This document shows positions 20,261-52,600 of a stretch of DNA of 64,000 nucleotides, piece by piece (the first letter of the stretch is position 1; the number at the start of each line of letters is the position of its first letter). The stretch covers positions 744,001-808,000 of the forward strand of contig QPGO01000007.1 of assembly GCA_008632985.1 (NCBI GenBank), given 5' to 3'. The notes beneath the pieces were generated by a model that had not been told where the DNA came from, ran no database searches, and saw nothing but the letters and a program-made list of their open reading frames with translations. Made by a program: the position numbers and the translations under genes. This stretch comes from Psammoneis japonica (taxonomy: Eukaryota).

Positions 20261-20591
20261 TTGAAGAATTCACTGACTGTCATCTCAGCCCTGACTGTGC
20301 AGCATCTCTCTCCACTGCCACAGTGCCATCTGCTCCCATGGCTGGCTTGTCACCCACCAAACCACATGACCCAGTGTGTGATTTCAAACAAGGCATCAAA
20401 TGTGACCCACTTGCCTCCCCCCTTTGTTCACCCTTGAAGAATTCACTGACTGTCATCTTGGCCCTGACCGCACAGCATCTCTCTCCACTGGCACCATGCC
20501 ATCTCCTCCCATGGCTGGCTTGTCACCCCCCAAACCACATGACCCAGTGCATGACTTCAAACACAAGGCATCAAATGTGACCCACTTGCCT
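20261..20591 (+). repeat. About 174-bp tandem duplication within gag
   Basis: ttgaagaattcactgactgtcatct...aaatgtgacccacttgcc at 20261-20415 and 20435-20591. Confidence 0.85.
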
Positions 20592-21249
20592 TCATGACTC
20601 ACAAGGTCTGACAAGCAGTGGCACACATGGCACACCTCCATCATTGCACAGGCATGCTCCCAGGGGATGTTGACCACACTCTCGATTTGAAGCACAAGCC
20701 CTCTGCACCCAAAGACAAGGCATTGTCACCTGAACAACAGAAGCACATGTTTGCCATCTTTGAATGCATCTTGCAAAATGACAAAGGCAAGGCACTTGTT
20801 CATGACATGTGGCAATGCCTGAGCCATGTGCCAAAAAATCTCTGAGTGTGCCTTTGCATCCACCCGTGCATCACTTGATTCATTGACCCTTCTCACTTGC
20901 CTCACCACTGCTTGTCTTGGTGATGGCACCTGGAAGAGATCCACCCAGGCCTTCACATTTCACTGGCAAGAGGACGCACTGGGTTGCATTGGTTTGCAAT
21001 CTTGTTGGTCAGGAGGAGGTCGTGGATGAGTTTGACAGTGCCAATGTGTTGTTGATGCTTGCAGTGTCATTTTATGAGCACTGCATGTGCCTGTCAATTG
21101 ACCAAGTCCACAACTTCAGGACACCATTGATTGCATTCCACAATGTGCTCTGGCAACTGGGGAGCAGTGGAAATGCATCAGATTTGCTGCTTGTGTCTGG
21201 AGGTCAATGCACCATCTTTGAGAGACAAACAAGAATGACAATGAGGAAA

Positions 21250-29899: not shown

Positions 29900-31330
29900 C
29901 TGCATGACTGCACTGACAGGCTGGAGAGGAACCCCACTACAAACTGTCTTAACTACAAGATGGGTCCTGTGCCAACAGCAGCAGTGCTCCACACCCATCC
30001 GGTGGAAAATGGAGTTAGATCAATGGCAACTTGAGCAAGTCCTTTGTTGTTGTTTGGGCTGCAGGCATCAATGAACCAAATGCTGTCAATGGCCACGCTG
30101 GCCTGCATGGCCAGCATGGTTGGCATTTTGGCAAATGACAAATTGCTTGCCTGATCAATCCTCACAATGTGGTCTGCTGGCCATTTTCATGAATCACATG
30201 TGCATCCCCAGCTCCATGATCCAAGAAAGCTGCGGCAGTTCTAAGAACAAAGAACTCAACAAACTTGCCATTTTCATCACTGATGTCTCCCCCAGAGTTG
30301 GGAAAGATTTCCAAAATGATGACATTTTGGGAGGAGATCATCTGCTGATTGGAGAACTGCTTTGTGAGGTGGAAGGCAGCTCTGATGAAGAACAACAACT
30401 TGGTGAGGTGGAAGGTGCACTGCTCTGTGATGGAAAAGGCAGCACTGGCAGAGAAATGCTTGTTGAGGTGGAAGGGACAGTGCTTGGTGGTTTGGAAGGC
30501 TGCTCTGTCACAGTGCTGCTTAAAGAGGCAGAGTGCAGCTCTCATGGAAGACTGCTCTAAGAGGCAGAAGGTAGCTCCAGTCGACCGCTGCTTGGACAAG
30601 CAGAAAGAAGCTCTGATGGAGCACTGCTGGGAAAGGTGGAAGGCACTTTTGATGGACCAGTGCTTGGCAATGTGCTGGGATGATTCAGGGACAGAGAGGA
30701 CAAGGGCTGTTCTGACAAGACTTCATCATTGAGACTGCAGCTGAGGGCAGTTTGCACTCCAATGCCCAGTGCCCAGCAACTCTGGCACTGCAGATGACTC
30801 TTTTGAGCAGAAGAAGACATGCCGGTCAGCAAGCATGGAACTGGAAATGAAGGCCAGTGAAAGCAAGGCAGTTCCTCCAGCAATTTCTTGACTGGCATAG
30901 GTTGTCAGGTCCCACTCCACAAGCTGTTCATCTTCCATGGCCAAAATGGACACCACAGCCAAGGGAGTCATCCCATGTGCAGGCTTTGTCAACCAGGTCA
31001 TGAGCATGCTGATCTCATTCCACTCATCCTTCCACACAGCATCCAAGACCTCTTCTTTGAGGTCCACAGCAGCACCCAAGGAAACAATTGCATGTCAGAC
31101 TTTCAGCTCCACTCTTAAGAATCTTGACACCCAAAGTTGGTGGTTGTTTCTGAAGCTCCACCATGAGTGCAAGTGTCTGCTGCAGAGTGCAAGGTTGTTT
31201 GCCAGAGGAATGTCCACGAGAAGCTCAATCTTTGCTTGAAGCACCTTGTCTCAACATTTCTGAAAACTGATTTTGGTGAGCAGCCATTTCAAACATCCCA
31301 AATTGGCTGAAATCAACACAGCGACGCCTT
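29900..31330. mobile_element. Degenerate TpA/CpG-depleted repeat-derived block, unassigned
   Basis: Same compositional signature as the transposons; short repeated GEVEG-like units at 30350-30680. Confidence 0.4.
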
Positions 31331-31592: not shown

Positions 31593-33594
31593 TCAGTACA
31601 CTTCCACGTGCCATTGCTTGTTCTTCTTCAACCCCTTTAACCACTCATCGTAATCGATATTCTTCGATTTGGCGACACTTTGGAGCATGTCTTGGATACC
31701 AGGCATCATTCCCTTCAACCCGCAAAAGTAAATGTGGGCTCCATTCTCCAACTTTTCAAACACTTCATCAGCATACTCTTCGACCTTGTCTTGGATGTAC
31801 ATTTTGCCTCCTTTCTTGTTCTCTTGTTCACGCGAAAGAGCATAGTCAAGACGGAATTGATCAGGGTTGTTCTTCTTCACCTCTTGCCACTCGTCATCGT
31901 ACAAAAGAGCGTCGCTGTTGGCAACACCCAAGAACAACCATGCTTGTCCCTTGTAAGCATTCGCTGCAGGAGTGTCCTCTGTGAACAACCGACGCACAAA
32001 GCCACGGTAGGGAGCAATACCAGTTCCAGTAGCAACCATAATGTAATCCGTGTTGGGATCCTCCTCGGGCAAGAGCATGACCTTACCGGCGGGACCAGTC
32101 ATTTGCACTTGATCGCCTGGCTTGGTATCACAGAGGAAGTTGGAGCAGATACCCTTCTTGGCAGGGTCGTCGGCTTTCAACTCGGGGCACCAGTAAGTGG
32201 CACGACGGACGCAAAGACTTCCAGTTTTGCCAGACATATCATCACCGTAACGACTGGAAGCGATTGAGTAGAGACGGACCGAGTGAGGCTTTCCGTCCTT
32301 TTCACGGACACCTGGGGGGATGACACCCCATGACTGTCCTTCCCAGTAGGGAAACTTGCCCTTGTGGTCAATGACAATGTGACAGGTCTCTCCCGTTGCC
32401 TTGGGTCCAACAATTCGCTTGGTGGAGACAACCTTTCCGGTAAAGGGAGCCTTATTCTTGAAAACATTAACGGGAACGGTGGACTGGTCCCAGTAAGGGT
32501 CAGCTTCCAAGAAGTCCTGCTTTTTGGACCCTTTTACAAACTCACTACCGGTAATGAGAGCTAGGGCGGCGAGTGCGGCAAGCCCACCCTTTTTCCCCGC
32601 AAGGGTAATGGCAGACACAATCACACCGGCGGAAACGACACCGGTAAAAATAGAAGACAAGGCTACCGCTGTGGGCATACCCAAGAGAAAAGCACCCATT
32701 GCTCCCGTCCAAGCACCGGTTCCTGGAAGTGGAATACCGACAAAGGCAGCCAACGAAGCCCACTGTTTCTCTACTGAACCTACACCAAGACTTGCCGACT
32801 TTTCTTCTGCACGAGAAAGCATGGGAGCCATCAATTTTCTAATGGAACAGCATTATGGTGAGCAAGGTGCAAACAATATTTGCACACAAGGGTAAATAAA
32901 TAGCAAAAGCATCACTCCAAACGACTCACTTGAGCTTTTCATTGCGGAGCAGAAACATCAGGGGAACAATTGGCATCATGTTACCAATCACACAGGCTGG
33001 CAAGACTGTAGTGATGGGCAAGCCCATCCAAAAGCCTACAGGCACTGCACCACGAAGTTCGACTACGGGCAAGGCTGAAATAATTGCCAAAACTGCCACA
33101 TCGGGAAGGCCAAAGGACTGAAAGTACTGCGCAATCTTTTGTCCTACATGCAAATGTTCCGTCGAAGCACCGGCAGTCGCAGCTAGAGCGGGTCCAGTAC
33201 TGAGCAAAGTTAATGCACTAAACGCAAGAGCAGCCCGTGTAAAAATCTTCAATGTCGCCTTGCCAAACTTAAACTTCCTCGTTTTCGAAAAGGATGCTTC
33301 CGAAACATCTGAAGATTTCGTATAGAGCGGTCTAGTAACACTGACTCTATCGCTGATAGGAGAAAGAGCAGTCCGAGCAGCATTTACTCGATACACATTA
33401 CACGAATTGAACCTATTTAGGGGAAAAGCAACGACACAAGACGATTTTGGTGGTGAATGACACAAACAACATGACAGTCGCGCTAGCTAGCAACTACCCT
33501 ACGGATCAACATACCGCACAGAGGGACCTGAAGAAAAGGCATCTATCAAAGGCAGGCCCAGAGTCACAAAGGCGGCAAACGACAACAGCTTCAT
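31593..33594 (-). CDS. Plastid-targeted fusion of a 'small multi-drug export' type membrane domain and ferredoxin-NADP+ reductase; exons 33594-33515, 33412-32930, 32838-31593
   Basis: Presequence ...[40 protein letters not shown], then in the same exon [12 protein letters not shown]...WHVEVY, nearly identical to the FNR at 5501-6436. Confidence 0.85.
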
Positions 33595-33753: not shown

Positions 33754-34451
33754 NNNNNNNNNNNNNNNNNNNNNNNNNNNNNNNNNNNNNNNNNNNNNNN
33801 NNNNNNNNNNNNNNNNNNNNNNNNNNNNNNNNNNNNNNNNNNNNNNNNNNNNNNNNNNNNNNNNNNNNNNNNNNNNNNNNNNNNNNNNNNNNNNNNNNNN
33901 NNNNNNNNNNNNNNNNNNNNNNNNNNNNNNNNNNNNNNNNNNNNNNNNNNNNNNNNNNNNNNNNNNNNNNNNNNNNNNNNNNNNNNNNNNNNNNNNNNNN
34001 NNNNNNNNNNNNNNNNNNNNNNNNNNNNNNNNNNNNNNNNNNNNNNNNNNNNNNNNNNNNNNNNNNNNNNNNNNNNNNNNNNNNNNNNNNNNNNNNNNNN
34101 NNNNNNNNNNNNNNNNNNNNNNNNNNNNNNNNNNNNNNNNNNNNNNNNNNNNNNNNNNNNNNNNNNNNNNNNNNNNNNNNNNNNNNNNNNNNNNNNNNNN
34201 NNNNNNNNNNNNNNNNNNNNNNNNNNNNNNNNNNNNNNNNNNNNNNNNNNNNNNNNNNNNNNNNNNNNNNNNNNNNNNNNNNNNNNNNNNNNNNNNNNNN
34301 NNNNNNNNNNNNNNNNNNNNNNNNNNNNNNNNNNNNNNNNNNNNNNNNNNNNNNNNNNNNNNNNNNNNNNNNNNNNNNNNNNNNNNNNNNNNNNNNNNNN
34401 NNNNNNNNNNNNNNNNNNNNNNNNNNNNNNNNNNNNNNNNNNNNNNNNNNN
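33754..34451. other. Assembly gap (N run)
   Basis: Run of n. Confidence 1.
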
Positions 34452-35251
34452 TTGGGAGCAACCCCAATGCTTGCTGAGAATGTCAGCAGGGTTGTGGGAG
34501 CCTTCGATGAAGTGGAGCTCAAGGCAACCAGAGGCAATTGCCTCACGCACACGGTGGAACGACAGTGCGGTGTGTCGCTTGTGTAACTTGGAGTGCGGGA
34601 TGGTGGCACTGTCTACAACCGACTTGTTGTCACCGAACATGTAACTGACATTGCGGATCGGGATGCCAAGGCAGCGCAGGGTGATGCGCAGGTCGACAAT
34701 CTGTTTGACACAAGTCCTTGCTGCAACAAATTCAGACCCGCAGGTCGCAGTCTCCAGGGTGGCTTGCTTCTTGGAGAACCAATCAGCCGGGAATTTGTTG
34801 AGGAAGTGGAGCATTCCCATGACAGAGCATCCAGTGAGCATGCAATGGTGCAAGTTTGCATCGACGTAGTGGGTGGCAGTGACGAACTTGCCAAGGGGCG
34901 GTGGAGCGTCCTTCGGGATCATCTCTTCTGCTTCGCCGCACACGGAATGCATCCATTCATGGGCCGGAGCAGGGAGATCTGAATGGTCGGGCTCTTCCGT
35001 ACAAATGCGGAGAGCGCCGTGTCGCATCTTGGAGAGGTGCCCACAGACGCGTTTGGCACGATCCAAGTGGCCTTGACGGGGTGCAGCTCGGAAGCTAGAG
35101 AGTGACATGGCGGCCGTGGCAATGTCAATTCGACCAAGAGACACTGCCCATTGGAGTGAACCAACAAGGGACTGGAACTTGTGAATGCCATCGGGCTCCA
35201 GCAGTTCGGAAGTGTCCAGTTCGGGGTGGTCGCCCTTCTCCAGAGGTGACA
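34452..35251 (-). mobile_element. Inverted Copia RT-end/RNase H fragment, paralogous to 42240-43040
   Basis: LSPLEKGDHPELD...WFSKKQATLETATCGSEF...NPADILSKHW on the minus strand. Confidence 0.92.
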
Positions 35252-38200
35252 GATTAACAGTCTTGCTCATTGTCAACCCATTGAGCAACCGCCATCGTCG
35301 TCGTTGATTTGCCGACGACGCCACTTCAATTCTGCATGGACCTCCGTACATGTTCCACATGCATCGGCAAGTTTACGCGCATCCAACACCAGGGCATCGG
35401 CAGGAAGTTAACGTCACGGTCATGGCCTCCTCACCGCTGGACATCTGGATTGATTGTGCCACCTTTGATCGCTGAAGACATGCATTCAACGGTCATGTCC
35501 AAGTCCATCCTTGATCCTCATCCCTTGACATGCCCATTCATCGGTTAACGGTCAAGAACCCTGCATGTTCAAGGATCTCTGTCGCTGAAGACACATGTGT
35601 GCACATGTCTTCACGGCCAAGGACTTGAACCCACTCTTTGGACTGCGGCTTTGCCACCACTCTACAAGCACGCCGAGTCTGTTGCACCTGATCTACCCCG
35701 GACTGCTGGTGCTCTGCAGTTCCACTGGGTCCACGAGGACGACTGTGAGAGCAAGCAGCCGTGATTGCAGCCTACGTTGGGGCGAGGGTGTTTTCCCGCG
35801 TTTGTTCGTTCGTCCACAGTGCCTGGCGCCTGCGTCAACTGGCCAGCCTGATCGGAAAATCCAACCGACATAAAATGAGAACGGTTTGGGGGTCTTGTCC
35901 ACCTCCAGTCAGCTTGCCTGCGGGGGTTTGCAACCCGCTGCTCCGCTCGCAAGCAACCCAAAGCGCCACTGGCTGCGGGTTCGAACGTGCCGGCACAACT
36001 CTAAGGACCGGACAGGAAGTTTAGCACTTGACAACGAACGGGACAGCAAAGCCCAGCGACTTCTGATTTTGGGGCAGTTCAAGATTTCAAGTCAAGTCCA
36101 TTTCAAGTCAAGTCTGTTCTCACCCAAGCTTCAAGTCTGTCTTCGCTTCCCAACAAGAATTGATTGTCCTGACACCACTTTTGTCTACCATGGTTCTCAC
36201 TTGTCAGCAACAAACCGATGGTTTTGAGCACGTTGTTGGAACCGTGCTTGCCCAAGGTGCTGGGAGTCCTCTTCGTTTGGCTTTGGCCCAAGACGGCATG
36301 GACTCGCATCAAGAACTGTTCACGTTCATGCCGTCCCAAATCGACTCGCTTGAGTGCGACAACGGCACCAATGTGATCCCTTTGCCCCGCGGTTGTGAGA
36401 ACATGTTGGCAGCCCCAGTTGGTCTGTACATTGTCAAAGCACACAAAGGTCTTGACGTTGCCAATGACTCCTCGTTGTTCACGCATGACGAGTTCCTTGC
36501 CCACCGCCTCAGCCCCGACTGCATGTCTTCTGTGTCCATCGGCAGCTCACCCCTCGCACCTCCGCATGTCACCAACCCGACCAAGGCACGCGACCCGGTG
36601 CGAGACTTCAAGCGAGGCATCAAGCATGACCCCACCGCTTTCACGGCTCTCAAATCCGACAAGCAGTGGCACACTTGGCACACCTCACTTGTGGCACAAG
36701 CCCGTGCCCCCAAGACGTCGAGTGCATCCTAGACTCGTCGTACAAACCGACCAGCCCCAAAGACAAACTGCTCTTTGCTGAACAGCAAAAGTGCATGTTT
36801 GCCGTCTTCGAACGCATCCTTCTCACCGACAAGGGCAAGGCTCTCATTCGCGAAAATGTGGGGTCTTCTGACACCCAGACCGTCTGCCGCGCCTTGTCTG
36901 AGCATGCGCTCGCCTCCACCCGTGCATCTGTCGAGTCCCCCACCTTGCTGGCGTGCCTCACCACCGCACGTCTTGGTGATGGCACTTGGAAAGGTCCGAC
37001 CCACGGGTTCATCCTTCATTGGCAAGATCAGTTGCGCAAGTGCGAGGCACTCATCCCGGCCAGTGACCACTTCTCTGAAGGACAGAAGTGCATCATGCTC
37101 GAGAATGCCGCACACCCTGTCGAGGAACTCCGTGCTGTCAAGAACCAAGCTGATCAGCATCGCACGCAGAGTGGCAAGAGCCTCACATACGATCAACACT
37201 GTGGCTTGCTGATGTGTTTTCATCCCAGGTGAGAAACGCGCATGCGGAGGTGAGACATTTCGTCTGTCCCTTTTCCATTGCCATGCTTTTTGTGCGAGCA
37301 AATCTGACTGGACTTTCCCCCGATTTTTCATTTCTTCTTTCTGCAGACATGTTTATTTTGAAAAGCCAGCCGTCATTCTCATTGGTTGAAGGGTGCGCAC
37401 AAGAAAAGCGCTTTCTCGAAAGCGGCATTTTTTGGAGTGAAACTGACAGCTGTCTGCTCGTTGTTGTTATTCTGGTGCATTTGAGAGACTGTTCCACTGT
37501 TTCTTTCACCGAATCTGACCACTTTGAAAGAATGCACGCATTGTTCATTGTGTGAAGAGCTCACACCAAAAAAGAACGGCGTTCTAACTCTGTCATTTGC
37601 ACAAGAAAAATCGGGGGAACTGACTTCGCACGTGATTTTTTTGCGCGATCGGCCATTTCAAAGATCGACTGATTTGTCGACCTGTGTGGGACACTTGAGT
37701 GAACAAAACAATGGGATTGAAATGGCAGCGTCAAAGTTCAATGTGTGTCTAGTCATTGTGTGATTTGACATGCTCAAGCAGAGTTAAAGATGAAATGTTG
37801 ACAAAATTTCACCGCTCAAAATGACTGGTTCTATCTTAGAATAAAATAAAATGGCTGCAACACTGAGATGTCGCTAATGGCATTGTTCTACTTTACAACA
37901 ATGAAACTGTCACACTTGCATCTGAGATTCTTTATCCTCACACACCCTCAAAACCGAACACATGACGATTCTCTTGTCAGCAGCGAAATCTGATGTTGTC
38001 GCGCGACCCAAAAGCGTCGTCCACAACGACTCAAAGTGTGGACGATACATTGTGAGAATCACAGCAACGTGTCATAGAAACATTCTTCGTTGTCAGTGTC
38101 CGGTGTCAAGTAGATGGAGCAGCGCGTTGATGAGAATCCTACTTCGCAAGCTGAGGAAGAGAGAAAGAGGCATCAAAAATGTCATGAGTCAAAAGGCCAT

Positions 38201-41200
38201 CCACAAGGCACAACAAAAAACAAAGATCAAATTTTCAACCACATCATCGCACCGAGCGTTGTCTTGTTGACCTGTCTCGGCATTCTTACCTTCTCAGTCA
38301 CAACATCCGTTGGTGCAAGAATGGACGAGTTCATGGCGACGGCATGGTGCCATTTTCGGTTTGCGCGAATTGTGGTTTGTGGTTCGAGACATGGAAAAAC
38401 ACATTTTTGCTGTCATGGAGCTCGTTTTTTACTAAGATTTTTGGTGCTAAATGCACGTCTCATGTAGAAACACGTAGAAAACCTCGTGATGTGACCAAAA
38501 GTTTCTCACCCAGGATGAAAACACATCTGCTCCTCTCCGCGGCAGCTCAATGCGACAGTGCGTTTCAACCCAAGACGACACCTCGAGCTCCCCGACGCGC
38601 CATGTGCGCACACGACGTCTGCTCCGAGGAACCGTCCAATGATGTGTTCTGTGACATTGACAGTGACATTGACGTCCTTCAGGCCAATGCTGCCTGCACC
38701 CGTGGTCCCAGCCTCACCGGTGACCAATGGAAACGTCTCCCTCCCGACCACCAACGGATTTGGGATTCGTTGCCCCATTCCTCCAAGGCGATCATCCTTG
38801 AGCATTCTTGCCCGCCTCCCCGCAACCCGCAAGACAGCAACTGCCATGAGTCCATTGCGGCCAACCTTCACGACCACCGCCTTGGGAGTGACGGTGATGT
38901 CAACTTGTCCAACACGACTCCTGCTGACTCTGGTGACTCCACTCCAAATGTGGGTGCCACTTTGGACAATCCCATCCTGGCGCACCTCACCAAGCGCAAG
39001 CCACTGCCACCCGGTGATCTGCAACGTCTGTTGTCTCCTAACCAAGCCCCCAATGCTGGTCGACCGGGGCCATCCGCCGCTCCCTCTACCCCGCCAGCTT
39101 CTGCCGATGACACAGAACTTGGCGGCTGCACTTGCCATCGCGTTGATGACCACAATGTCATTTGCTCTGCCTCTGCTCATTGCTCCACACGCACTGGTGC
39201 TCTGGTCGATCGTGGGGCCAACGGCGGCATTGCTGGCGACGACGTTCGCATCATTGCACGCACCTCTCGCCAAGTCGACGTTCAGGGCATTGATGACCAT
39301 CAATTGGTGGACATCCCTGTTGTCACCGCTGGTGCCGTCATTGAGACCCAGTGTGGTCCCGTCATCGCCATCCTCCATCAGCACGCATGCACGGGCAAGG
39401 GCAAGACCATCCATTCCTGCGGCCAGCTTGAATGGTGCAAACAGGATGTCAACGATCGCTCTGTCAAGGTGCCCAACGGCTTGCAATGCATTGCCACTCC
39501 TGGTGGCTGTGTCATCCCCATTGACATCAAGGGCGGCCTGCCTTGTGTTGCCATGCGACCTTGCACTAATGCCGAGTGGGACACCCTGCCCCATGTCATC
39601 CTCACCGGTGATGACACATGGGATCCTTCCGTCCTCGATCACTCTGTCACTGACGATGACCAGTGGTGCGACGCGATCTCTGACCCACAGGACGGTCCCA
39701 CTGCCAACCTGTTTGACGGGTGCGGCAACTGCCGTCATCGTGTCATTGTCAACGAGACCATCATGTCCACTTCCTTGTCTGCCGATCACGCGTCCACCCT
39801 CGATGATCACCTCATTCTGAACAACGACGTGTTCTGCGAGTGTCATCTACATGCGATTGACCCCAAGGACGACGACGTTCCGCCCCTGGAGCGCACTGTG
39901 CAGCCCAAGGACCCCCCCTTCGAGTCTCTTCGGCCTTGCTTTGGCTTCCCACCTGCCGATGCGGTCCGTCGTACTTTTGACTGCACCACGCAGTGCGCCC
40001 GCATGCCAGCCGGCACACACCTTGGGAAGGCCTGCAAATCACCCAACCCCGCCCTTAACGCACACCGCCGCAACGAGCCTGTCGCCACTGACACCGTTTG
40101 TGCCGACACCCCGGCCGTCGACTCTGGTTGCACCAGCGCCCAACTGTTTGTTGGCACCGAGTCTGCCGTCACTGACGTCTGCGGCACCAAGACGGACAAA
40201 GAGTTTGTCAACACACTCGAGGATCAGATCCGTGAGCGTGGTGCCCCATCCAAACTCATTGGCGACCGTGCTCAAGTTGAGATCAGCAACAAAGTGCTCG
40301 GGATCCTACGAGCCCTCTTCATCTCCAGCTGGCAAAGTGAGCCTCACCAGCAACACCAAAACTTTGCCGAGCGTCGACACCAGACCGTGAAGCGCATGGC
40401 GAACACTGTCATGGATCGTTTTGGTTCGCCCACCCACACATGGCTGCTGGCGCTCATGTGCGTGTGCTTCACACTCAACCATGCAGCATCCCCACGTCTC
40501 CACTGGCACACGCCCCTCGAGACTCTCACTGGCTCCACCCCGGACATCAGCCCATTGCTTCGCTTTCACTGGTGGGAACCCGTGTGCTTCCACCTTGATG
40601 ACTCCGATTGGCCGTCCGAATCCCGTGAGTTGCGTGGATGCTTTGTTGGCATTGCTGAGCACGTCGGCCACCAGATGACCTTCAAGATTCTCTCTGACGA
40701 GACTCAGAAGATCCTCCACTGGTCCAACGTACGCTCCGCCACCACCGATCCTGCCGTTCGAAACCTGCGTCTTGATCCTCCTGATGGGGAGCCACCTGAA
40801 CCCATCATCAAATCTCGCCATGATGACAACCCCGTCGATTCTCCTGATGGGGAGATCAGGACACCCAAGATGCCAGTTTTCGATCCGCAAGACATCATCA
40901 GACGCACCTTCTTCATGCAGCCACAAGAGGACGGACAATGCCACAGAGCTTGCATCGTCAAGGCCGTCGAAGACCACGAATGGAAAGTGAACGGCAATCC
41001 CGAGCTTGCTAAGTTCATCTGCTCTGTCAACAATGACGAACACGAGGAAGTCCTTGCCTGCAACGACATCATGAATCACATTGAGCAAGAAGACGAAGAC
41101 ACTGCTGTTTGGAAATTCCGACGCATCGTGTCACACGAAGGACCTCTGAAGCCTCATGACCCAACCTGGAAAGGCTCAAGCTACAACATCATGCTTGAAT

Positions 41201-43375
41201 GGGAAAGTGGGGAGATCACGTCCGAGCCTCTTGCCATCATCGCCAAGGACAACCCCATCACCTGCACCATCCATGCACGAGAGAACGGACTTCTCGACAC
41301 GGATGGCTGGAAGCGGTTCCGCACCATTGCGAGGCGCCAAAAGAAGCTATTTCGCATGGCCAACCAAGCCAAGCTTCGCTCCTTCCGCACTGCACCTCGC
41401 TGCAAGTGCGGACACGAAGTTCCCCGGAACTGCAAACATGCCATGTCACTAGACGAACGCAATGGCAACCGCAAATGGGGAGACGCAACTAATCTCGAGA
41501 TGGACCAACTCGAGGAATACGAAGTCTTCCATGACTGCGGGCCCTTCGAGTCTTCCACTCCTCCTGCGGGACACAAGAAGATCCGAGTGCACCTGGTGCA
41601 CGACGTGAAACATGACGGTCGCCACAAGGCACGACTCGTAGCCGATGGGCACCTCACGGACATGCCTGTTGACAGTGTCTGCTCCGGAGCAGTCTCCCTC
41701 CGTGGCCTTCGGCTGATGATTTTCCTGGCCGAACTCAACGAGTTGGAGACATGGGCCACCGACATTGGCAATGCCTGCCTTGAAGCCACCACCAAGGAGA
41801 AGCTCTACATTGCAGCCGGACCCGAATTTGGCAAACTCGAAGGACACATCCTTGTCATCCACAAGGCCCTGCATGGACTGCACAGCTCCAGCCTCCGCTG
41901 GCACGAGCGCTTCGCCGACTGCCTGCGAGCTGAAGGCTTCTTCCCCTGCCGCGCCGAACCCGACATTTGGATGCGCAGGAACGGCGACCACCATGAATGC
42001 ATTGCCGTTTATGTGGATGACCTCGCCATTGCTGTGAAGGACCCTCAATCTTTCGTTGACACTCTCACGGAAAAGTGCAAGTTCAAGCTCAAGGGTGCGG
42101 GACCCATTGAGTTCCATCTGGGTTGCGACTTTTCCCGGGATCCCGACGGCACCTTGTGCCTGTCTCCGCGCAAGTACATCGAGCGCATGGTCGACAGCTG
42201 CACCCGACTGTTTGGGGAGAAACCTGCCACCAACGCCCTGTCACCTCTGGAGAAGGGCGACCACCCCGAACTGGACACTTCCGAACTGCTGGAGCCCAAT
42301 GGCATTCACAAGTTCCAGTCCCTTGTTGGTTCACTCCAATGGGCAGTGTCTCTTGGTCGAATTGACATCACCACGGCCGTCATGTCACTCTCTAGCTTCC
42401 GAGCTGCGCCCCGTCAAGGCCACACTTGGATCGTGCCAAATGCGTCTGTGGGTGCCTCTCCAAGATGCGACACGGCGCTCTCCGCATTCGCATGGAAGAG
42501 CCCGACTGTTCGGATCTCCCTGCTCCGGCCTGTGAATGGATGCATTCCGTGCACGGCGAAGCAGAAGAGATGATCCCAAAGGACGCTCCACCGCCCCTTG
42601 GCAAGTTCGTCACTGCCACCCACTACGTCGATGCAAACTTGTGCCATTGCATGCTCACCGGACGCTCTGTCATGGGAATGCTCCACTTCCTCAACAAATT
42701 CCCGGCTGATTGGTTCTCTAAGAAGCAAGCCACCATGGAGACTGCGACCTGCGGGTCTGAATTTGTTGCCGCAAGGACTTGTGTCGAGCAGATTGTCGAC
42801 CTGTGCATCACCCTGCGCCACCTTGGCATCCCGATCCGCAATGTCAGTTACATGTTCGGTGACAACAAGTCGGTTGTAGACAGTGCCACCATCCCGCACT
42901 CCAAGTTACACAAGCGACACACCACACTATCGTTCCACCGTGTGCGTGAGGCAATTGCCTCTGGTTGCCTTGAGTTCCACTTCATCGAAGGCTCCCGCAA
43001 CCCTGCTGACATTCTCAGCAAGCATTGGGGTTGCTCCCAAATCTGGGACCTTCTCCGCCCCCTCATGTTCTGGAACTTCATTCCATCCGAAGTCGAATCT
43101 GTTTCTGTGGCTCCTCAAGCAAACTGGGGAGTGACAGGATTTGAACAGGATTTGGGTGCGCGCGAAATGTCGCGCGCTGTTTAGTTTGCCGCGCACAGTT
43201 TTGTGTGCTTTAGTTCCGCGCGTTCGCGCACGATGTAGTTTGCTTTCGAGCCACGAGGCTCACAAGAATAACAACAGCAGCCCGATCACACTGACTTGCA
43301 CGTCTTTCGGCTCCTGCAATGGTCTCTGAGCGGAGACTCATCTGCCATTTAGACAGCAGCAAGGAGTCATTGTTT
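35252..43375 (+). mobile_element. Younger Ty1/Copia element: PBS about 35252, gag from about 36190, pol to about 43130, PPT about 43125-43131, truncated 3' LTR 43132-43375; no 5' LTR
   Basis: Protease LVDRGANGG; integrase VATDTV, SEPHQQHQNFAERR; RT HLVHDVKHDGRHKARLVADG, YVDD; RNase H; frameshifts at about 36705 and 42421. Confidence 0.95.
37211..38527. mobile_element. Non-autonomous TIR DNA transposon (1317 bp) inserted in Copia gag, 4-bp TSD TGCT
   Basis: 27-bp TIRs gatgtgttttcatcc(ca/tg)ggtgagaaac; tgct at 37207-37210 and 38528-38531. Removal restores GLLLS, as in the old copy at about 22750. Confidence 0.9.
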
Positions 43376-46300
43376 GAACTCTTGCCATTTGCCTTCAATT
43401 TCTGTCATCCTTTGTGTGGAAGTTGATTGGATTCGGGTTAGAGATCCATGCGGTCTCGAGGTTGGCCTTTGGTGTGGCAAAGGTGATGCTGCAGCTGTCC
43501 AAAGACAACACTCTTTGATGCATCATGGCCGCACACACACCCCAGCCGTGACTTCAAAAAGCAAGTTGCACTCACAAAAGCAAGCTGCACTCTCTCGTCT
43601 CAGCTTCGTTTGCCCCCTGCCAGACCTCTCTCACCCCCACAAAGTCACCTTGATTCAAAAATGTGTTGGTTCATTCCCAATGATGGCAGCATCAGTGAGC
43701 AAAGCAGCTCTTGCCAGAGACTCCAAGTTGTCTGCTGGTGCTGGCTGCGCCTCTCCTCTCTTGCCTCTTGGCGATCCCAAGGCTGCCGCTCTCTGCTCAC
43801 TCTGGCTGGCGCCACATCACCAGCATGCTGAAAAGCCCCCATCAACCCTTGTGTTGATGCCATGCCAGTGTTTGTCATGTGTGCAGCTCCCCAGTTGGTT
43901 GGTGGAGTCAAGCCAGAGCGCCACCCTTTTCTGCTGCATTGTCAGGGCAAAAGTGCCACAGTGCACATCTCCAGAGCTCCCAATGAGCTCCCTCCAAAAC
44001 TTTGCTTGGAAGCAAAAGCTGGGCTCCACATGCCTTTTTGCACCATGTTCTCCATTTTAGCCAACAACCAGATTTTGACCAAAGCACTCACTGGCAAAGC
44101 ACAGCTCCAGACTTGGCAGCAGCTGCAACCAAAGCTTTGCACAAGCTTCTCCAGCTCTGACATGAAGCACAGATGACAAAACAGGTTTTCATCAGATGAC
44201 ACTCTTTGATGCATCACAGCCACATGCACATCCCAGCTGTGACATCAAAAAGTGCACCACAAAAGTCATTCTCAGCTTTGTTGGCCCTGACGAAAGAACT
44301 CTCTTGCCCCCACAAAGTCACCTTGATCCAGCTGTGTGAGTTCATTCCCAATTGTGACCACATCAATGGCCAAAGCAGCTCTTTTGTGCCAGAGTCTCCA
44401 AGTCATCTGCTGGTGCCAGCTCTCTCTTGCCAACCCTTGGGCTGCTGCTCTGCTTGCTCTGGCACCACATTGCCAGTGTGCCCCATCAACCCTTGTGTTG
44501 ATGCCAGGCACCAGTGTTTGTCATGTGTGCACCAGCTCCCCAGTTGATTGGTGGAGAGTCACACAAGAGCCATCCACTTCTGCTGCATTGCCAGGATGAA
44601 AATGCCACAGTCACATCTCCAGAGCTCCCAATGAGCTCTCTCCAAAAATTACTTGGAAGCAAAGCAGCTGGGCTCCATGCCCCTTTCGCACCGTGTCCTC
44701 CATTTTACCAGCAACCAGATTTTGACCAAAGCACTCACTGGCAAAGCACAGCTCCAGACTTGGCAGCAGCTGCAAAGCTTTGCACAAACTTCTCCGCTCT
44801 GTCATGAAGTGCAAATGATGAAACAGGTTTTCATCAGCTTTTTCTGACTCTTCAGGAGTCTGAAATGCTTCAGTGTGAAGCTTCTGTGGAAAGCAAACAC
44901 AAGACCAATGAAGAGAGGCTGAATGAACAGTGCCCCCCACACACAATCATCATGCTTGTCATTGTGGCACTGTTGGGCACCACCTGCTGGAAGCAAGCTG
45001 TTGCTGGACAGCAACGTTTGGTCATTTGGCAGCAAAAAGGCAAAATTGGCCATCTGTTGCTCTGTGCTGGCACAGTGCACCAAGTGCCCAGCACCAATGT
45101 GCTGGACAGATGTGCAATCTTCAAAACAACAGCAAAGAGTTGCCAGCATTTTGAGTGCCTGATGGCTGATTTTTTTTGCCTCATGCCTCATGGCCAGTGT
45201 GGGCCACCACCCCCTTTGATCCCCCAGCAGGAGGAAGCATTGAATGTGTGCCAAGGTGCCATGCCAAAACAGATCATTCAGATGCATGCTGCTTGGACAT
45301 TGACTTTGTTGCAACCACGGCACCCTTGCATGGTCATTGGCAAGCACCGCAACATGCCCTTCTGACATTTCATCTGCCAAAGCAAGTCCTGGATTGCTTG
45401 CCACAATGACTGGACTGCCACTGTCATCCAGGAAAATGGTGTGTCCATGCCGACCATGACAGTCATGTCCTTTTGTGCATTCTCCCATTAAAAAGTCCAC
45501 AAGGATGGTGTGCAGCTGCACTGGCGAGCCAACACTTGACCAGCACTGATGTCATGAGTGCCAGCCCTTTTGGCTTCCCAGCAGCAACAGCTGTCCCCCT
45601 GAGTGACACTCTCAAAAAGATGCTGCACACCCAAAAATGGGTGAAGTGTCTGTCTGAGTTGTTGACATGATGAAGTGCTGTGACTGCACACTGATGCCAT
45701 CAAACAGATCTGCAACCAGTGGCATTGTCCCCACATTGCCCTGCAGCAAGAACATTGCCTGTGCCCAGCAGGGGCAGATCAAAGCCAAGCCCACCATCCT
45801 GCTGAACTCATTGATCAATGTCACCACCAAGCTGCCCCCCAACAAAGTCTGTGCACAACATGCCAAAACACTTGAATGCACCCATGCCAAGTCCACCTCC
45901 ATCATTCAAACAGGCTCCAACAGCCAGTGCAGTGATGCTGTCATTCAGAAACATGGCACAACCAAAGAAATCATTCATGTCTCTTCTGCCAGTGGCTGGC
46001 AGGACTTTGCTGGCAGGACCAACCAAACCAAAGTGCCGCCATGCAGCCAAAAATGTCAGTGTCTTGTTCTGCCCCTGCATTGTGTGACAATGAGATGGAA
46101 CCTCTCTGAAGCAGTCATCCTCAGTGAAGCCATTTGTCAGATCATGCAACACATGCACAGTGAGCATGACACACCAATGAGAGTGTGGTGCACTGGCAAA
46201 CCTTTGTCACAGACTCATGTCTTGCTGTTTTTCTCAGCTCTTCTTGCATGGGCAGCATGCAAATCAAATCAAACCCGCATTTTGTCTGAAACCAAATCCG

Positions 46301-49300
46301 GAGTTGTTTTGTGTTCCTTGGTGCAGCCAACAGTCAAACAAGGGCAAGGAAATGGATTGGATTCAGGCCAAAGATCTGTGCTGTCTTGAGGCCAGCTTTG
46401 GGTGTGGCAAAGGTGATGCTGCAGCTGTCCAAAGACAAGACTCTTCAATGCGCCACAACCACATCCCTCCCAGCCACATCAAAATGTGCACCACAGAAGT
46501 TGCCTCAATTCACTTGTGTTGCCAGAACTCTCTCACCCCCACAAAGTCACCTTGATCAAGTTGTGTGAGTTTGTTCCCAATCATGACAGCCCCAATGGCC
46601 AAAACAGCCCTTGCCAGAGATTCCAACTTGTCTGTCAGTGCTGGTTCTTGTCAATCCTTGGATCACTGCTTTCCAGCAAAGCATTGCTGGTGGCTAAAAA
46701 GTGTGTGTCAATCCTGGCATCAATGCCATGCCACCATTTGTCATGTGTGCTGCTCCCCAGTTGATTGGTTGATCCAAACCAATCAGCTGATGAGCAGCAG
46801 GGGGGGGGGGGGGGGGCAACCAGCCACCAGCCAAAAAGCCAAAAAGCTTTTTGCCCACTCCTCCTGGCTGCAATGACAGATCATCATCTTCAGATGGCAT
46901 GTGGCGGTGTTGCCTCAGGACAAAAATGTGCCATTGTTAAAAAAGCAGGCAGCAGTCCTTTCCATTGTCATGTCAAAAATTTTGAAGTTGTTTTTGTGTG
47001 TGCCACTCATTTCTCAGCAGAAGTCTCAACCAGCCATGATTTCTTCTTTTCATGACATGGTGCTCCCAGCATGTCATGTGCCCCTGTGACATTTGTTCAC
47101 ATGTGTGGTGCTCAACATGCAGATCTTTTTATGCTGGCTGCTTTATCCCACAACCCTCAAAGGTTTCTGGCCAGACAAGCCCAAGTCAGTCTTGGCCATG
47201 GCTCACTTGCCACTGTACAAAAAAACTCTGGAATTACAAAATTGCATGGAAGCAGCACCAGGACCCCAGCAGAAATGCCAAAAAAGTCTGGAACATGCAG
47301 AAACTGTGTGGAATCCAGCATAGAATCAGTGCCAGGAATGTCAAAAAATCATGACATTCAAGACTTTTTTGGCATTTCTGCAGAGACCCTGGTGCTGCTT
47401 CCATGCAAATTCAATGTTCCTGAGTTCTTTTGCGGGGCAGCTTGTGGCAGCTGAAAAAGTCAGGTTCTACACCTGCTGTGCCATTGTCCATTTTCAGCCA
47501 ATGACCAGATTTGTGCCAAAGCACTTGCTGGCAAAGGACAGCTCCACAGACTTGTTCTTGGTGGCAGCAGCAAAGTTTTCTTCTGGCTTCTCCATCTCCG
47601 CCAAGAAACTCAGATGATGAGCCATGTTTTGCTCATCTCTCCAGGAGTCCACTGAAACACTCAAGTGTGGGGAAATTCCTGTGGATGAGTTAAACGAAAA
47701 ATGGCTGATTTTGTTGAAAGGGACCCTTTTTGCAATTGTTGTGCTGTTCAGTGCCTCACTTTTTGAAACATGTGGTGGTGTGCAAGTTGATCTTTTGGCC
47801 CTGTGCACTTGTTGCTTTGCAGCAACTCAATTGTCATGTGTTTCTTCAGGTCATCATTGTCTGGGCTGCTGCTGCTGCTGCTTTGTTTGTGACAGAGTGT
47901 CTTCTTAAGACCCTGTTCAAACACCATCAAACATTGTCACACCTGAAAAATGCAAAAAGACAGTGCAGGCACAATGTGAGAGCCACAGTCTCCTGCAGGC
48001 CCATCTTAAAATGCAGCAGTTTGTGCAGCATGCCCCAAGGCAGCATCAATGACTTTCCAAAGGACTGGTGGTCATTGTGCAAGAAACACACAAGTGACAA
48101 AGTTGCAAGCATCTCAGGCAATGCAGTTCTCCCCCCTTGGCTGCTGCATCTTGGCAAACTGTGCAGCCGTGCAATCTTTGTGTGTGTGTGTGTGTGTGTG
48201 TGTGCTGTGTGTGTGCACATTGCTGCCAAACAAGTGCAAGCCATGATGAGCAAACAAGCCAAGAGGAGTTTCCAACTTTTTGCAGGAGAGCATGCAAAGG
48301 CAAGGTGGTGGTCTGAGCAAGAAGCCAGAAACTCATTCAACACACCCAAGAACTTGCAGTCAACATCACATGCAGTTTGTGCACTGAGTCCAACCTTGTG
48401 CTGGCAACCACAAAAGGATTTCTCAGCCAGGCCCAGCCCAGGCACAAAGGCATTCAGCAAGTGTTGGTTTGGTTTTGTCACAATCAGCTGTGCTGTGCAA
48501 CAGTGCAACAGCTGTTGTGGAAAATGAGATCTGTTGAAGTGCTTGAATTTAGAAAAGAGGCTGACGCAAGACCATTTGCAAGACATTGTTGGTTTGAAAA
48601 TCAAGGATGTTCTTGTTGAAAAAAGCAACTTCATTGCAGATGGTTGGAGCAAAGGAGGCACACTGCAGTGCTGTGTGTCACTTGGAAAAGCCAAAGTGTG
48701 GTGGGACATTGGCCTGGTTTGGGAGATGGTTGTGGGTCTTTGTTTGGGCATCCGCAGCCACTTGGATGCAGACAAGAGCATGAGAAAACAATGAGCCACT
48801 GGGCAAAAACACTGTGGAAAAAATGTGTGGCGTTGTTTGTGTCACTTTGAAGTTGTCTGCACATGGGCACAAGGAGCAGATGCAAAATGTCCCCCAATGG
48901 GAGGTGAAGCCTCCACAGCATGTTTGCTGCTTTGTTCTGCTCTTGCCCCACTTTTGCTTGCCACCACACAACCATTGCTTGTCCTGGACATCCCTGCTGC
49001 AGGCAACCTCTCTGATGGAGCCACTGCTGCTGCTCCTGCTGCTGTGGGAGCCAAAGCAGATGACTCATTGAAATTGGCACAGGCAGCTGCCACCATTGTC
49101 TGATGTTTCTGGCGGGAATCCAGGGACACTGCAAATGATGAAAAGATTGTAGATTCTGTTAAAATTTTTGACCAGCCTTTGCAGCAGTTTGCCAACAAGA
49201 GCTGCCACTGGTGGATTTGTTTGCCCAAACCTTTTTTGCACAACTCATTTGCAAACAAGTGTTTGTGGAATGTCAAGGGCCCCAATTGGCTGCAAACTTG

Positions 49301-52300
49301 TTTACAAACCAAAGAGCTTGAACAGCTCACAATGCAGTCATCACATGCAAATCACATGCACCCAAATCACATCTTGCCACTTGCTTGCTTGGTGCAACTC
49401 CACATCCAGTTGGATGTGACTGGGTTCATCTGCCACATCACACTCAAGTGCAACAGCTTGATTGGCAACAGCAAACAAACAGCCAATTGTTGTTGTGCCA
49501 CTGTGCCATTGCCAGGAGGCCACATCCCATTGGAAATGAGCATCACTGATGAAGACAGCACACATTGGACAGAGAAACAATCCTCAAAATGACAGAAGAG
49601 TCCTGCCATTTTGATTGCCTGGTTGAGTTTTTCTCTTGTCACACTGGATGGCTGGTGCAGGCCACCACTCCCTCTGATCTGCATGACAGGGAGCAGCTGC
49701 GGGGATGGGTTGCTTTGCAGCCAACAAACTGCACTCTTTGCAACAAGGTGGCATGCTGGAAAAATGTTTGCACATGACAAAGGCTGGACTCACTCCTGTG
49801 ATGAGCAAGCAGAAAAAAATGATGCATGGCATGATCACCTTTCACCTTCTTGATTGAAAATGCACCAATGCAATGTGTGGAGTTGGGTGTCTGGGCAAAG
49901 AGAGCAATGGAGAACATGTGCTGCAAGATTGTTTGGTGACAGCAACTCTTGTGGTGCTTCTTCTCTAGCTTGTGGCTGGACCCAGCTGGCCACAAGCAGT
50001 TTTTCTTGACAAATGTTTTGCCTTGCTGTTTGATGCCTTGACATTTTTTCCAAAAAGTCACAGCTGCACTCATGTTTGTGCCAAGTCATGGTGCAAGAAG
50101 CAAGGCTTTGTCAGAGCCATGCCCATTGGAATCCTCAACTCCTCTGCAACCACTTCTTTGCAGAGCCAGCCAGAGAGGAGTGTCTGGCAAACTGCCACTG
50201 CAGACTCAGCACAAATTTTTGGTGGAGTGAATGCAATGGACACCTCCAAAGCCAATTGGAACTTTGGCTTCCCCATTTTGCAATGAGTCACAGACATTGA
50301 CAAGTCTCTGTCACTCCACATGATGATGCTGCAACCTGCACTGCACCCAGTGGCAGCATTGTTTGTCAAAGCAAAGAAGTGTGCTTCCTGTCAAAAAGTG
50401 ACTTCTAGTTTCGTGCAAGCATGTGCATCATGTCAGGGGTTTGGTTCTTCCTGAGAAGCTCAGGTTTGCATCCAAATCTGACAATGCAGCTGCAATCCAT
50501 TGCTGCTGGATGGTCGACCTTCACTCAGCTGATCTTCAAGTTTGAACACCATCACAGGTGCCAAACTGGCATTTGAATGAGGGGCACGACCCAGTCCAAC
50601 CATGGATCCATCAGCTGACAAGGACACCCACAGTCTAAATGAAATGCTCTCAGTTGCACCATTTGGATGTTGCCCTGCTTTGTGACTCACTTTCCTGTGC
50701 TTGGACAATGTTGAAAGATTCCAACTCCTCCAACTTCACTCATGTTTGTTGATTTGTGCCAGGTGCTTCCCACAGCCACCACATGACCATTTTGCTTCCA
50801 CTCAAAGACAATGAAGAACCAATTGGATCATTTTGCTGCTGGGGGCATGGAGTTTGACCTTGTTGCAACCATGCCAACTTTGCGTGATCACAGGCAAACA
50901 ACACCAAAACACATCATCCTGACATTTCATCTGCCCAAAGTCCTGGTTCACCCATCACAATGACCAAACTGCTGTCATCCAGGGAAACAGTGTGTGTTCA
51001 TGCTGACCAAAGTGGTTTCCCTCTTTGTGTGGTTCCCCATTGAACCCATGAGAACAATGTGTGATTGCACTCACAAATTGACACACTTGACCAGCACTGA
51101 CTTCACAAGTGTCATTTCTCAACTCCCCAATGCCAACAACTGTCCCCAAGCAATTCAAAAACACTGAACACCAAAAACTGGGTTTGCTGAAAAGAGTCTG
51201 TCTGAGTTGTTGCCATCAAGCATGGAGATTGCACTGGCACAATCAAACCACCCATCCAGAATCAACAAAATTAAATCTGCATTGTCATGTGGCAAGAATG
51301 TCTCCTGTTGTGTCTTCTGCCAACATGGGCTTGGGTCAAAACAAGAGAGTGTGGCCAAGTGCTGGAGAAAATGCAAGCCACTTCAAGCTGGGCCTCAAGC
51401 CCAGATGAGCTCTCAAGTGTGCATTCACAACACATGCACAAAAGCACAGCTGTTTGAGACAGCTGACATTTTTTTGTTTTTGTCCTGGAGTTGCTGCAAC
51501 ATTTGAGCAAGGCTGTTTGTGAGTTTTTGCTTGTGAGCACAGTTGACAACTGCCCTGGCTTGCACCCATCATCAGCTGATGAGTGCAAAGTCAACAACAC
51601 AAAATCTTCATGATGACTGCAGCTGTTGCCTTTGCTCAAAAATGCAGTTTTCCATCATGGGGCGATGTCAAACCACACTGATCATTTGGCACATGGAGAC
51701 CATGGCTCCACAAAACCAGTCTCATGGCAGCAACTCCCAACCTCCACCTGCAAACTTGTGGCTCATGGTTTTACCTGCTCCTGAGCAAGGCATGGTGCAC
51801 ATGGAAATTTCTCCCCGATTTTAAAAACCTGCAAAGCACCTGGAAATGAGTGATTTGCATTTGACATTTGCCATCAAATGAAGATCATGCAGCACTCACA
51901 TGACACAAGACAAGCATGGCACTGGGGACAGAGAAGGCCCCACACTGATTTGAGGTGTTGCCATCATCTTGGCACACTGATGGACAAAGAAGAATGTGGC
52001 AGTTTGGCCACAATTTTCCGGTGCAAAATGCAGTGCAGGTTGCACCACAACACCGCTCTCAGTTCTTCTGAGACACATTCTTGGCTGCAAGGAAGAGAAC
52101 AACAGTGAAAACAATGGCACAAGTGCAAAAAAGATAAAGATGACAGCAGTGTGATGAGACAAGGTGCACAACAATCAGCAGAAGCTTTGCTGCTGAGCAC
52201 TTCATTTGCACATCTGTTGGCACTCCAACAGCTGAAAAAGCAAGCACTTTTTGTCACTTCAAGTGAGTGCATGTTTTCAGCTGTGCCTGCTGGAAAAGAA

Positions 52301-52600
52301 GAGATGATCTTTGACAATGAATTTGTGAAAGAACACATCACAAAATCACATGAAAATTTTCCAATCAACAATCAGGTGTTGTGTTGGGGGTGCACTTTCA
52401 ACAATGAATGTGCAAACAAATTCAACAATGAAATGTGCAAACAAATAGACAACCCAGTGCTCCAACAACACACATGGGGGTTTTATTTGTGTGGCACGCC
52501 GCACAAATTTGAGCAAATCTCGTGGCTCCACTGATGCGTTGGACTGTCCACGTTGCGGCAGCACTTGAAGTTGTGAGCCACGAGATTGAGCCACAGCAAG
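43376..52600. mobile_element. Degenerate repeat block of unassigned family with internal dispersed duplications
   Basis: Related units at about 43420-44190, 44195-44830 and 46350-46770, and at about 45360-45680 and 50915-51220; near absence of TpA and CpG. Confidence 0.6.
47220..47432. repeat. About 70-bp inverted repeat / foldback (MITE-like)
   Basis: ttgcatggaagcagcaccagg...gcagaaatgccaaaaaagtct at 47242-47289 pairs with agacttttttggcatttctgc...cctggtgctgcttccatgcaa at 47361-47408. Confidence 0.8.

Follow-up and report, generated by a model that had tools for sequence, protein, structure and literature searches.

How did two copies of one retrotransposon gene come to carry Cys in one copy where the other carries His, at the same six positions and with both residues represented in each copy? 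The question is raised by a 64,000-nucleotide stretch of DNA (the window) that holds element A, a nearly full-length retrotransposon with a Copia gag-pol coding region, and copy B, an inverted and truncated fragment of the same family. A sequence-only reading of the window had taken the six positions to be ancestral Tyr codons that were resolved in opposite directions by mutation of double-stranded DNA, independently in each copy. From the analysis described here we think it likely that the ancestral Tyr codons of this single high-copy Copia family were erased by a host hypermutation that changes A:T to G:C and acts at TpA dinucleotides only.

Pairwise alignment of the A segment (42238-43040, plus strand) with B (35252-34452, minus strand) gave 803 aligned columns at 95.6% identity, confirming that the copies are otherwise highly similar. 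The six codon pairs were all found in place, with the codons and flanking residues reported for them (Table 1): A has four TGY and two CAY codons and B the reverse, showing that both types of change occur within each copy. The copies differ by 35 substitutions (33 transitions and 2 transversions) and by one 2-bp indel (42421-22, extra in A). With only five exceptions, the mismatches lay at pyrimidine-purine (Y-R) dinucleotides: CA/TG 7, CA/CG 7, CG/TG 6, CA/TA 2 and TA/TG 1. The seventh CA/TG swap, at 42369-70, is additional to the six reported earlier. Random placement of 35 differences over 801 positions gave 1.49 adjacent doubles on average, and seven or more with P = 0.0004 (200,000 trials); the seven adjacent double differences observed are therefore far above chance expectation.

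Ancestral Tyr codons and the loss of TpA

A word-based search found 1,568 homologues. All 120 that were listed have PF07727, and their identity to A is 45-68%. For the outgroup alignment we took, in order of id, the first 70 of those that reach 1,600 residues or more; these 70 share 57-68% identity with A, and the listed sequences not taken were mostly shorter. Arg, the residue that an ancestral CGY would specify, was seen in 0 of the 70 at every one of the six sites, upholding the earlier assignment of Tyr rather than Arg as the ancestral residue. Tyr was present in 67 of the 70 at site 1, in 68 at site 4 and in 66 at site 6 (with Phe in 1 and gaps in 3). At site 2 Tyr (55) was accompanied by Phe (9) and Leu (4), and at site 3 Tyr (47) was accompanied by Phe (16) and His (4); judged from these homologues, the ancestral residue of site 3 may have been Tyr or another aromatic. 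At site 5 an ancestral Tyr is likely but the least certain of the six: the 70 have Tyr 27, Met 24, Phe 13, Leu 4 and Cys 1, and the older element C of the window has Phe. At the seventh site, the residue after Ile was Thr in 29 and Ala in 17 of the 70 homologues. As Tyr is encoded solely by TAY, an ancestral Tyr means an ancestral TA at the DNA level.

We also surveyed the family by placing 2,291 contigs of run X1 on 42100-43200 (1.1 kb); the four runs in which the sequence occurs, none of them listed as RNA, share one sample and study, possibly the assembly's own source. At 42453/4 and 42507/8 the alternative letters occurred in equal numbers of contigs, that is, as the CA form, and neither TA nor CG was implied at 42453. 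Contigs with C>T outnumbered those with A>G at 42552/3 (22 vs 16), 42819/20 (10 vs 9) and 42369/70 (7 vs 6), and this excess points to TA still being present in a few copies. Other genomic copies carry TG, CA and, by implication, a few TA forms, and a CG form was implied at none of the reciprocal sites listed (all but 42531 and 42642). Over the 1.1 kb the variant letters comprised 52 transitions vs 6 transversions, and the TA sites still kept by A (42625, 42850, 42719 and 42929) were TG or CA in other X1 copies.

The erosion of Tyr extends along element A. With conservation set at 70% or more of the homologues, 803 columns qualified, 43 of them Tyr and 760 other. At the 43 Tyr columns A has Cys 22, His 8, Tyr 6, Phe 3, other residues 4 and Arg 0, while 658 of the other 760 columns are kept (Fisher p = 2e-24 vs the Tyr columns). 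Among the 70 homologues, 34-45 of 46 Tyr columns are intact in each, and Cys or His stands at no more than 3. At conserved Arg columns of A, 52 are kept, with 3 R>C and 1 R>H; at conserved Lys and Asn columns 38 and 20 are kept, with 4 K>R and 2 N>D. The two changes of Tyr are mutually exclusive: given Tyr 6, Cys 22, His 8 and Arg 0, independent hits on the two strands, which would give many Arg, are rejected (Fisher p = 1e-4). Each site changes once because the first hit removes TpA from both strands. The claim that mutation had come near saturation stands for A overall, where 30 of the 36 columns with Tyr, Cys or His are converted, but not for the time since the A/B split, in which 8/15 TpA sites were hit in A and 9/15 in B. 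The flanking bases of kept and converted Tyr codons showed no clear difference in A. The six conserved Tyr codons that A keeps all lie in 41182-42624, in its 3' part, with 0 among the 12 conserved Tyr sites before 41100 (too few to speak of a gradient). An open frame of 1,461 codons (38188-42573) survives the loss of 30 conserved Tyr, and it resumes as 42423-43184 past the 2-bp insertion at 42421-22, which is private to A and missing from 12 X1 contigs. Such long open frames persist in dead copies because TpA>TpG/CpA changes cannot make in-frame stops.

We then used observed/expected ratios (o/e) to describe the dinucleotide landscape. Host stretches in the window have a TA o/e of 0.54-0.66, a CG o/e of 0.75-1.03 and a GC content of ~0.47. 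For element A the corresponding values are 0.16, 0.85 and 0.54-0.56 (over 38188-43184: 0.135, 0.84 and 0.564), and for element C together with the older blocks TA o/e is 0.03-0.07, CG o/e 0.07-0.27 and TG+CA about 1.7-1.9, with 0.033 for TA and 0.13 for CG in C itself. Since A keeps CpG but little TpA, and the older blocks are poor in both, TpA was lost first and CpG later. Beside the TpA fractions given above, CpG sites were hit at 6/52 and 7/52 since the A/B split, and all other positions at 0.37% per nucleotide. The CpG decay is nevertheless real: at 42441, 42489, 42663 and 42804 Arg is the residue of the outgroup (64-70 of 70 homologues), and one copy has turned to Cys. In this one 64-kb window the loss of TpA is confined to repeat blocks, the neighbouring host DNA being normal, and the block edges are sharp, as on the left of block 1 at 17562/17563: TA is dense through 17562, and the next TA lies at 18619. 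A duplicated host gene for ferredoxin-NADP reductase served as a control: over 937 bp, at 95.1% identity, it showed 0 CA/TG swaps in 46 mismatches, with 23 TA shared. Within block 1, the depletion of TpA extends over 17563-18880, from 1.3 kb upstream of the 5' long terminal repeat (LTR) of C, a stretch that has no repeat match in the window and in which CpG persists to about 17953; it is either spread into flanking DNA or an unrecognised element fragment.

The same traces were found in other sequences. Among 270 homologues, four from ENA and JGI metagenome assemblies are Tyr-free (P0142, P0195, P0211 and P0214), with 8.6-11% Cys+His; they have Cys or His at Tyr columns and mostly keep Arg, P0211 having 6 His and 2 Cys at Tyr columns. 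The JGI metagenome contigs L001 and L002 have 55-61% DNA identity to the window, a TA o/e of 0.07-0.31 and a CG o/e of 0.20-0.59; at 21 positions where P0121 has Tyr, L001 has 2 Tyr, 8 Cys and 3 His. These two contigs appear to represent one family from sister samples and are counted as one source, and neither is P0263's own contig. By its signature, the same process appears to mark other element families and possibly other organisms.

RNA, cDNA or chromosomal DNA, and the agent

Which molecule is changed? The two LTRs of a retrotransposon are identical at integration. An LTR search of the window found no 5' LTR partner for element A, so the comparison of an LTR pair is limited to the older element C. 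The C LTRs differ at 48 positions, 28 of which make up 14 CA/TG swaps, and mutation therefore went on after integration. When polarised against A's LTR, a rough outgroup, 2 of the 14 swap sites trace to TA and 3 to CG, the rest being already TG/CA or unalignable. The swaps between the C LTRs and the appearance of the same signature de novo in chromosomal DNA of Bigelowiella natans (see below) lend indirect support to the earlier claim that change was independent per copy at the DNA level, be the DNA double-stranded or transiently single-stranded. Its companion claim, against editing of sense RNA, holds for such editing as the sole source: both directions occur in every copy examined, and some environmental copies are His-rich. 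Editing of a hairpin RNA formed by the inverted A/B pair was considered and rejected, since it predicts one direction and we observed 4 TG/CA and 3 CA/TG.

The mechanism that we favour would run as follows. The six sites would have been TAY in the common ancestor of A and B. A host process would change A:T to G:C in the Copia family solely at the self-complementary TpA, a hit on one strand giving TpG and a hit on the other CpA; as either would destroy TpA on both strands, each site would be altered once and then frozen. Each copy would resolve its Tyr codons randomly to TGY or CAY; among the sites lost in both copies of a pair, about half would then show a TG/CA swap between the two. The process would act on integrated chromosomal DNA, inside sharply bounded repeat blocks. 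Its TpA loss would outrun CpG decay, with GC raised first and CpG lost later, and in-frame stops would never be created, leaving dead copies with long frames. Five parts of this account are shown by the sequences themselves: the Tyr ancestry, the specificity for TpA, the exclusion of a second change, the restriction to blocks and the divergence that followed integration. For the agent, a putative TadA/ADAT-like adenine deaminase with a 5'-T requirement and acting on DNA, we see about an even chance; the recoding of TACG by TadA gives the idea of an adenine deaminase some chemical plausibility. The process would probably be the same as that behind the TpA hypermutation of B. natans, and it may serve as a defence against mobile DNA.

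Several observations count against this account. The evidence that TpA was lost after integration comes down to 2 polarised LTR sites, with an outgroup LTR from a different subfamily. A and B by themselves would also fit an editing of both cDNA strands that preceded integration. With so very many copies in the family, the assembly could have merged several into a chimeric consensus, and the apparent presence of both types of change on one molecule is read from the assembly rather than from single reads. Tyr>Cys and Tyr>His stand at 22:8 in A (p = 0.016), a bias of which a symmetric model predicts none; it could reflect a strand or 3'-neighbour effect, and a 3'-pyrimidine preference might be behind it, the numbers being small. 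Two T>C changes in B (42380 and 42975) are not at TpA, and Tyr at site 5 is found in just 27/70 homologues.

Thymine chemistry would explain the symmetric pattern equally well: the T of TpA would be modified or oxidised (to a base of the 5-hydroxymethyluracil type) and mispair with G, giving T>C on either strand. Bases of this type prefer TpA, and oxidised thymine is mutagenic. Silencing of transposable elements by 5-hydroxymethyluridine is reported for dinoflagellates in the available text of PMC11572971. We nonetheless consider this explanation unlikely, as it is unsupported by evidence in this organism, saturating T>C from such a modification is without known case, and the sole paper on the signature, in its available text, favours adenine deamination, if indirectly.

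We give still less weight to editing within the retrotransposition cycle, in which an adenosine deaminase would act on genomic RNA and/or single-stranded cDNA and insertions would arrive already mutated. Partial plus-strand editing would fit the Cys/His bias of A noted above, A and B could be separate insertions, and TadA-type enzymes turn UAC into UGC in RNA (PMC5630033, available text). However, both strands were hit in all copies examined, some of them, such as P0211, being His-rich; the C LTRs diverge by 14 TG/CA swaps; TpA depletion begins 1.3 kb outside the 5' LTR of C, in DNA with no repeat match in the window; and the B. natans signature, as far as the accessible part of the preprint goes, arises in non-retroelement, single-copy integrated DNA.

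A technical artefact, with miscalls at modified bases or a chimeric repeat consensus producing the TG/CA swaps, seems very improbable. The family is extremely repetitive, B adjoins an assembly gap and the runs in which the sequence occurs come from one sample, maybe the assembly source, but Tyr>Cys/His in a TpA-poor setting recurs in other families, in ENA and JGI assemblies that are independent of this one, the host genes of the same window are normal, and the long frame is kept as expected of real TpA>TpG/CpA changes. Methyl-CpG decay, in which deamination of 5-methylcytosine on either strand turns an ancestral CGY (Arg) into TGY or CAY, has next to no chance of explaining the six sites: its effects are visible in 13 A/B differences of CG vs TG/CA, in the conserved Arg positions at 42441, 42489, 42663 and 42804, in the CG o/e of 0.07-0.27 of the older blocks and in the 3 reciprocal LTR sites that trace to CG, but the absence of Arg from all 70 homologues refutes it at the six sites, the family copies imply TA forms and no CG form among the reciprocal sites listed, and A combines a CpG o/e of 0.84 vs a TpA o/e of 0.135 with Arg columns that are mostly intact.

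Elements, repeat blocks and host genes in the window

By tblastn, the intact homologue P0002 matches element A over 36190-43088 (residues 1-1848) and copy B at 74% identity (residues 1567-1832). Inside A, a 1.3-kb stretch (37217-38497) of reduced GC (0.45 for 37001-38000) has no P0002 match and may be either inserted DNA or a region specific to the lineage. As Ty1/Copia features, RVT_2 is present in the gag-pol of A, and C has direct LTRs with TG..CA ends and a near-match target-site duplication: its LTRs, ~250 bp each, start with TG and end with CA, and the flanking 5-mers ACTCT and TCTCT match at 4/5 positions. Pfam gave no separate detection of integrase or protease domains in the Copia polyprotein. 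Of 29 frames from the TpA-poor blocks run against Pfam, 27 were without a match and 2 gave weak RVT_2 matches (25738-26424 and 61175-62053). Block 3 matched neither Pfam nor Copia and consists of unclassified, fully converted repeats; it contains internal repeats, for example 43837-44195 vs 44481-44837. The 3' continuation of copy B is lost into the 698-N gap. At 35252/35253 the truncated 5' end of the inverted B abuts the leader region of element A, at the expected place of A's 5' LTR; either two elements were rearranged here or the junction was made in assembly.

Table 1. Coordinates of the retrotransposon copies, TpA/CpG-poor blocks and reciprocal TG/CA sites in the window
Feature	Positions	Strand	Details
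Copy A segment	42238-43040	+	RNase H end of Copia polyprotein; inside frames 38188-42420 and 42423-43184
Copy B	34452-35252	-	inverted 5'-truncated fragment, same family as A; 267-codon open frame; ends at N gap
Site 1	42453-42455	+	A TGC (Cys), B CAC (His, 35039-35037); context G-x-L
Site 2	42507-42509	+	A TGT, B CAT (34985-34983); context PD-x-S
Site 3	42531-42533	+	A TGT, B CAT (34961-34959); context A-x-EW
Site 4	42552-42554	+	A CAC, B TGC (34940-34938); context SV-x-G
Site 5	42642-42644	+	A TGC, B CAC (34850-34848); context NL-x-HC
Site 6	42819-42821	+	A CAC, B TGC (34673-34671); context LR-x-LG
Seventh reciprocal site	42369-42370	+	A CA, B TG; straddles codons (A ATC ACC; B ATT GCC)
Element A coding region (Copia gag-pol)	36190-43184	+	tblastn with P0002; Pfam RVT_2, E 4.8e-25
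3' LTR of element A	43185-43409	+	71-75% identical to both LTRs of element C
Element C, older Copia copy	18881-27510	+	72% DNA identity to A; LTRs 18881-19125 and 27259-27510
TpA/CpG-poor block 1 (holds element C)	17563-27800		19 TA in 10,238 bp (o/e 0.029); CG o/e 0.14; TG+CA o/e 1.89
TpA/CpG-poor block 2	30017-31115		TA o/e 0.073; CG o/e 0.074; no Pfam match
TpA/CpG-poor block 3	43440-52445		26 TA in 9,006 bp (o/e 0.043); 42 CG, o/e 0.081
TpA/CpG-poor block 4	59930-64000		TA o/e 0.065; CG o/e 0.27
Degenerate Copia in block 4	60153-61966	-	tblastn match; RVT_2 E 2.9e-7, below family cutoff
Assembly gap	33754-34451		698 N, adjoins copy B

The host genes of the window are long and intron-poor. 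Two ferredoxin-NADP reductase-like genes, at 5303-6436 (plus strand) and 31593-32852 (minus strand), form an inverted pair that is 95% identical over 937 bp and has normal TpA; the minus-strand copy has an in-frame N-terminal extension that by eye resembles transmembrane segments. Signal peptides ending in ASAF or ASAFAP lie upstream of an ATP synthase gamma gene (~8.9-9.2 kb, minus strand) and of one reductase (~4.8-5.0 kb, plus strand). Diatoms and other algae with complex plastids of the red lineage typically have this motif, and chlorarachniophytes do not; it suggests that the host is heterokont or diatom-like and probably not B. natans, so that the diatom of the earlier reading is plausible. 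A protein-atlas search with the ATP synthase gamma gene brought up bacterial clusters alone, which do not help to place the host. Annotators of such algal genomes should expect that some long open frames called as proteins may be dead elements without Tyr, and the dating of transposon insertions by LTR divergence would be badly inflated by TpA hypermutation.

Comparison with known systems

In the literature searched, which covered few subscription journals, TpA-only hypermutation appears in just one 2026 preprint, for one organism and for integrated viruses, and no description of the signature in diatoms was found. The available text of a diatom Copia paper (PMC2806351) makes no mention of hypermutation, repeat-induced point mutation (RIP), deamination or dinucleotides. 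PMC4504042 proved to be a false lead.

Methyl-CpG decay resembles the pattern seen here in that a self-complementary Y-R dinucleotide goes to TG or CA on either strand, leaving reciprocal differences between copies. It differs in that CG>TG/CA is a G:C>A:T change, and in A and B it is slower than the loss of TpA, alongside which it runs in the same elements. With TadA/ADAT and ADAR, according to the available sources, the likeness is a preference for A after U or T, and TadA also gives Tyr to Cys: in E. coli mRNAs it edits the TAC (Tyr) of a TACG motif to TGC (Cys) (PMC5630033, available text). Those edits, as described there, are made in RNA, are not inherited and need TACG in a loop, whereas the changes here are genomic and on both strands, and a G follows only 6/22 of the Tyr>Cys codons in A. 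From hyperediting by ADAR one would expect A>G at UA and AA contexts on the transcribed strand only; here Lys and Asn are largely kept and both strands are hit (Cys 22, His 8).

The fungal RIP system shares several features with the process proposed here: it targets mobile or repeated DNA, makes transitions only, is dinucleotide-specific, has sharp regional limits and inactivates its targets. Its direction is opposite. RIP changes C:G to T:A mainly at CpA and so adds TpA and stop codons and brings GC down; here TpA is destroyed (o/e 0.03-0.16), GC goes up (0.56 in A vs 0.47 in the host) and stops are impossible. Also unlike RIP, the 937-bp host duplication at 95% identity was left untouched.

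The closest counterpart is the hypermutation of B. natans (bioRxiv 10.64898/2026.01.13.699255, cited here from its available part). Two integrated viral regions accounted for 231 of the 302 nuclear mutations seen in mutation-accumulation lines, and 230 of these 231 were A>G or T>C, which the authors place on TpA. The rate was ~1000 times background, an ADAT2-like DNA adenine deaminase is proposed on indirect grounds, and reverse-transcriptase and DDE domains are over-represented in coding sequences low in TpA. To judge from that text, the two cases are alike in that TpA only is changed, to TpG or CpA by strand, in a GC-ward direction and within bounded foreign or mobile chromosomal DNA. There, de novo mutations were recorded in single-copy insertions of a nucleocytoplasmic large DNA virus and a virophage that retain 3.3% and 9.2% TpA; here, the loss of TpA is fixed and 83-98% saturated in multi-copy Copia LTR retrotransposons. 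The B. natans host is a chlorarachniophyte (Rhizaria), whereas the plastid-targeting signals here look heterokont. The available text of the preprint makes no mention of CpG, LTR, Copia or diatom, and here CpG is also lost, after TpA; nor does it describe the one-hit-per-site exclusivity and the Tyr>Cys/His readout seen here. For a rate of the B. natans type there are indirect figures here: the 14 swaps of the LTR pair, and the 8-9/15 TpA sites hit since the A/B split vs 0.37% per nucleotide elsewhere.

Altogether, our results support a second, saturated instance of the recently described hypermutation, in a different host lineage and with retrotransposons as the target. The retrotransposons with a heterokont-type host, together with the unrelated metagenome contigs, suggest a broader defence against mobile DNA that mirrors fungal RIP. 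The protein-level readout, conserved Tyr now Cys or His with Arg retained, marks its traces; the one-hit-per-site rule limits what the putative enzyme recognises, and a comparative route to the gene leads through deaminases or base-modifying enzymes common to the affected lineages. More tentatively, and with somewhat less than even confidence, we propose that diatom-type algae and chlorarachniophytes, and maybe marine protists of the stramenopile-alveolate-rhizarian (SAR) group widely, share a RIP-in-reverse defence: TpA-specific adenine deamination of DNA (or modification of thymine), once per site. If true, this counterpart of RIP would wipe out Tyr codons, raise GC and make no stops, ahead of methyl-CpG decay, and its Tyr-free "ghost" polyproteins would already be visible in ocean metagenomes.

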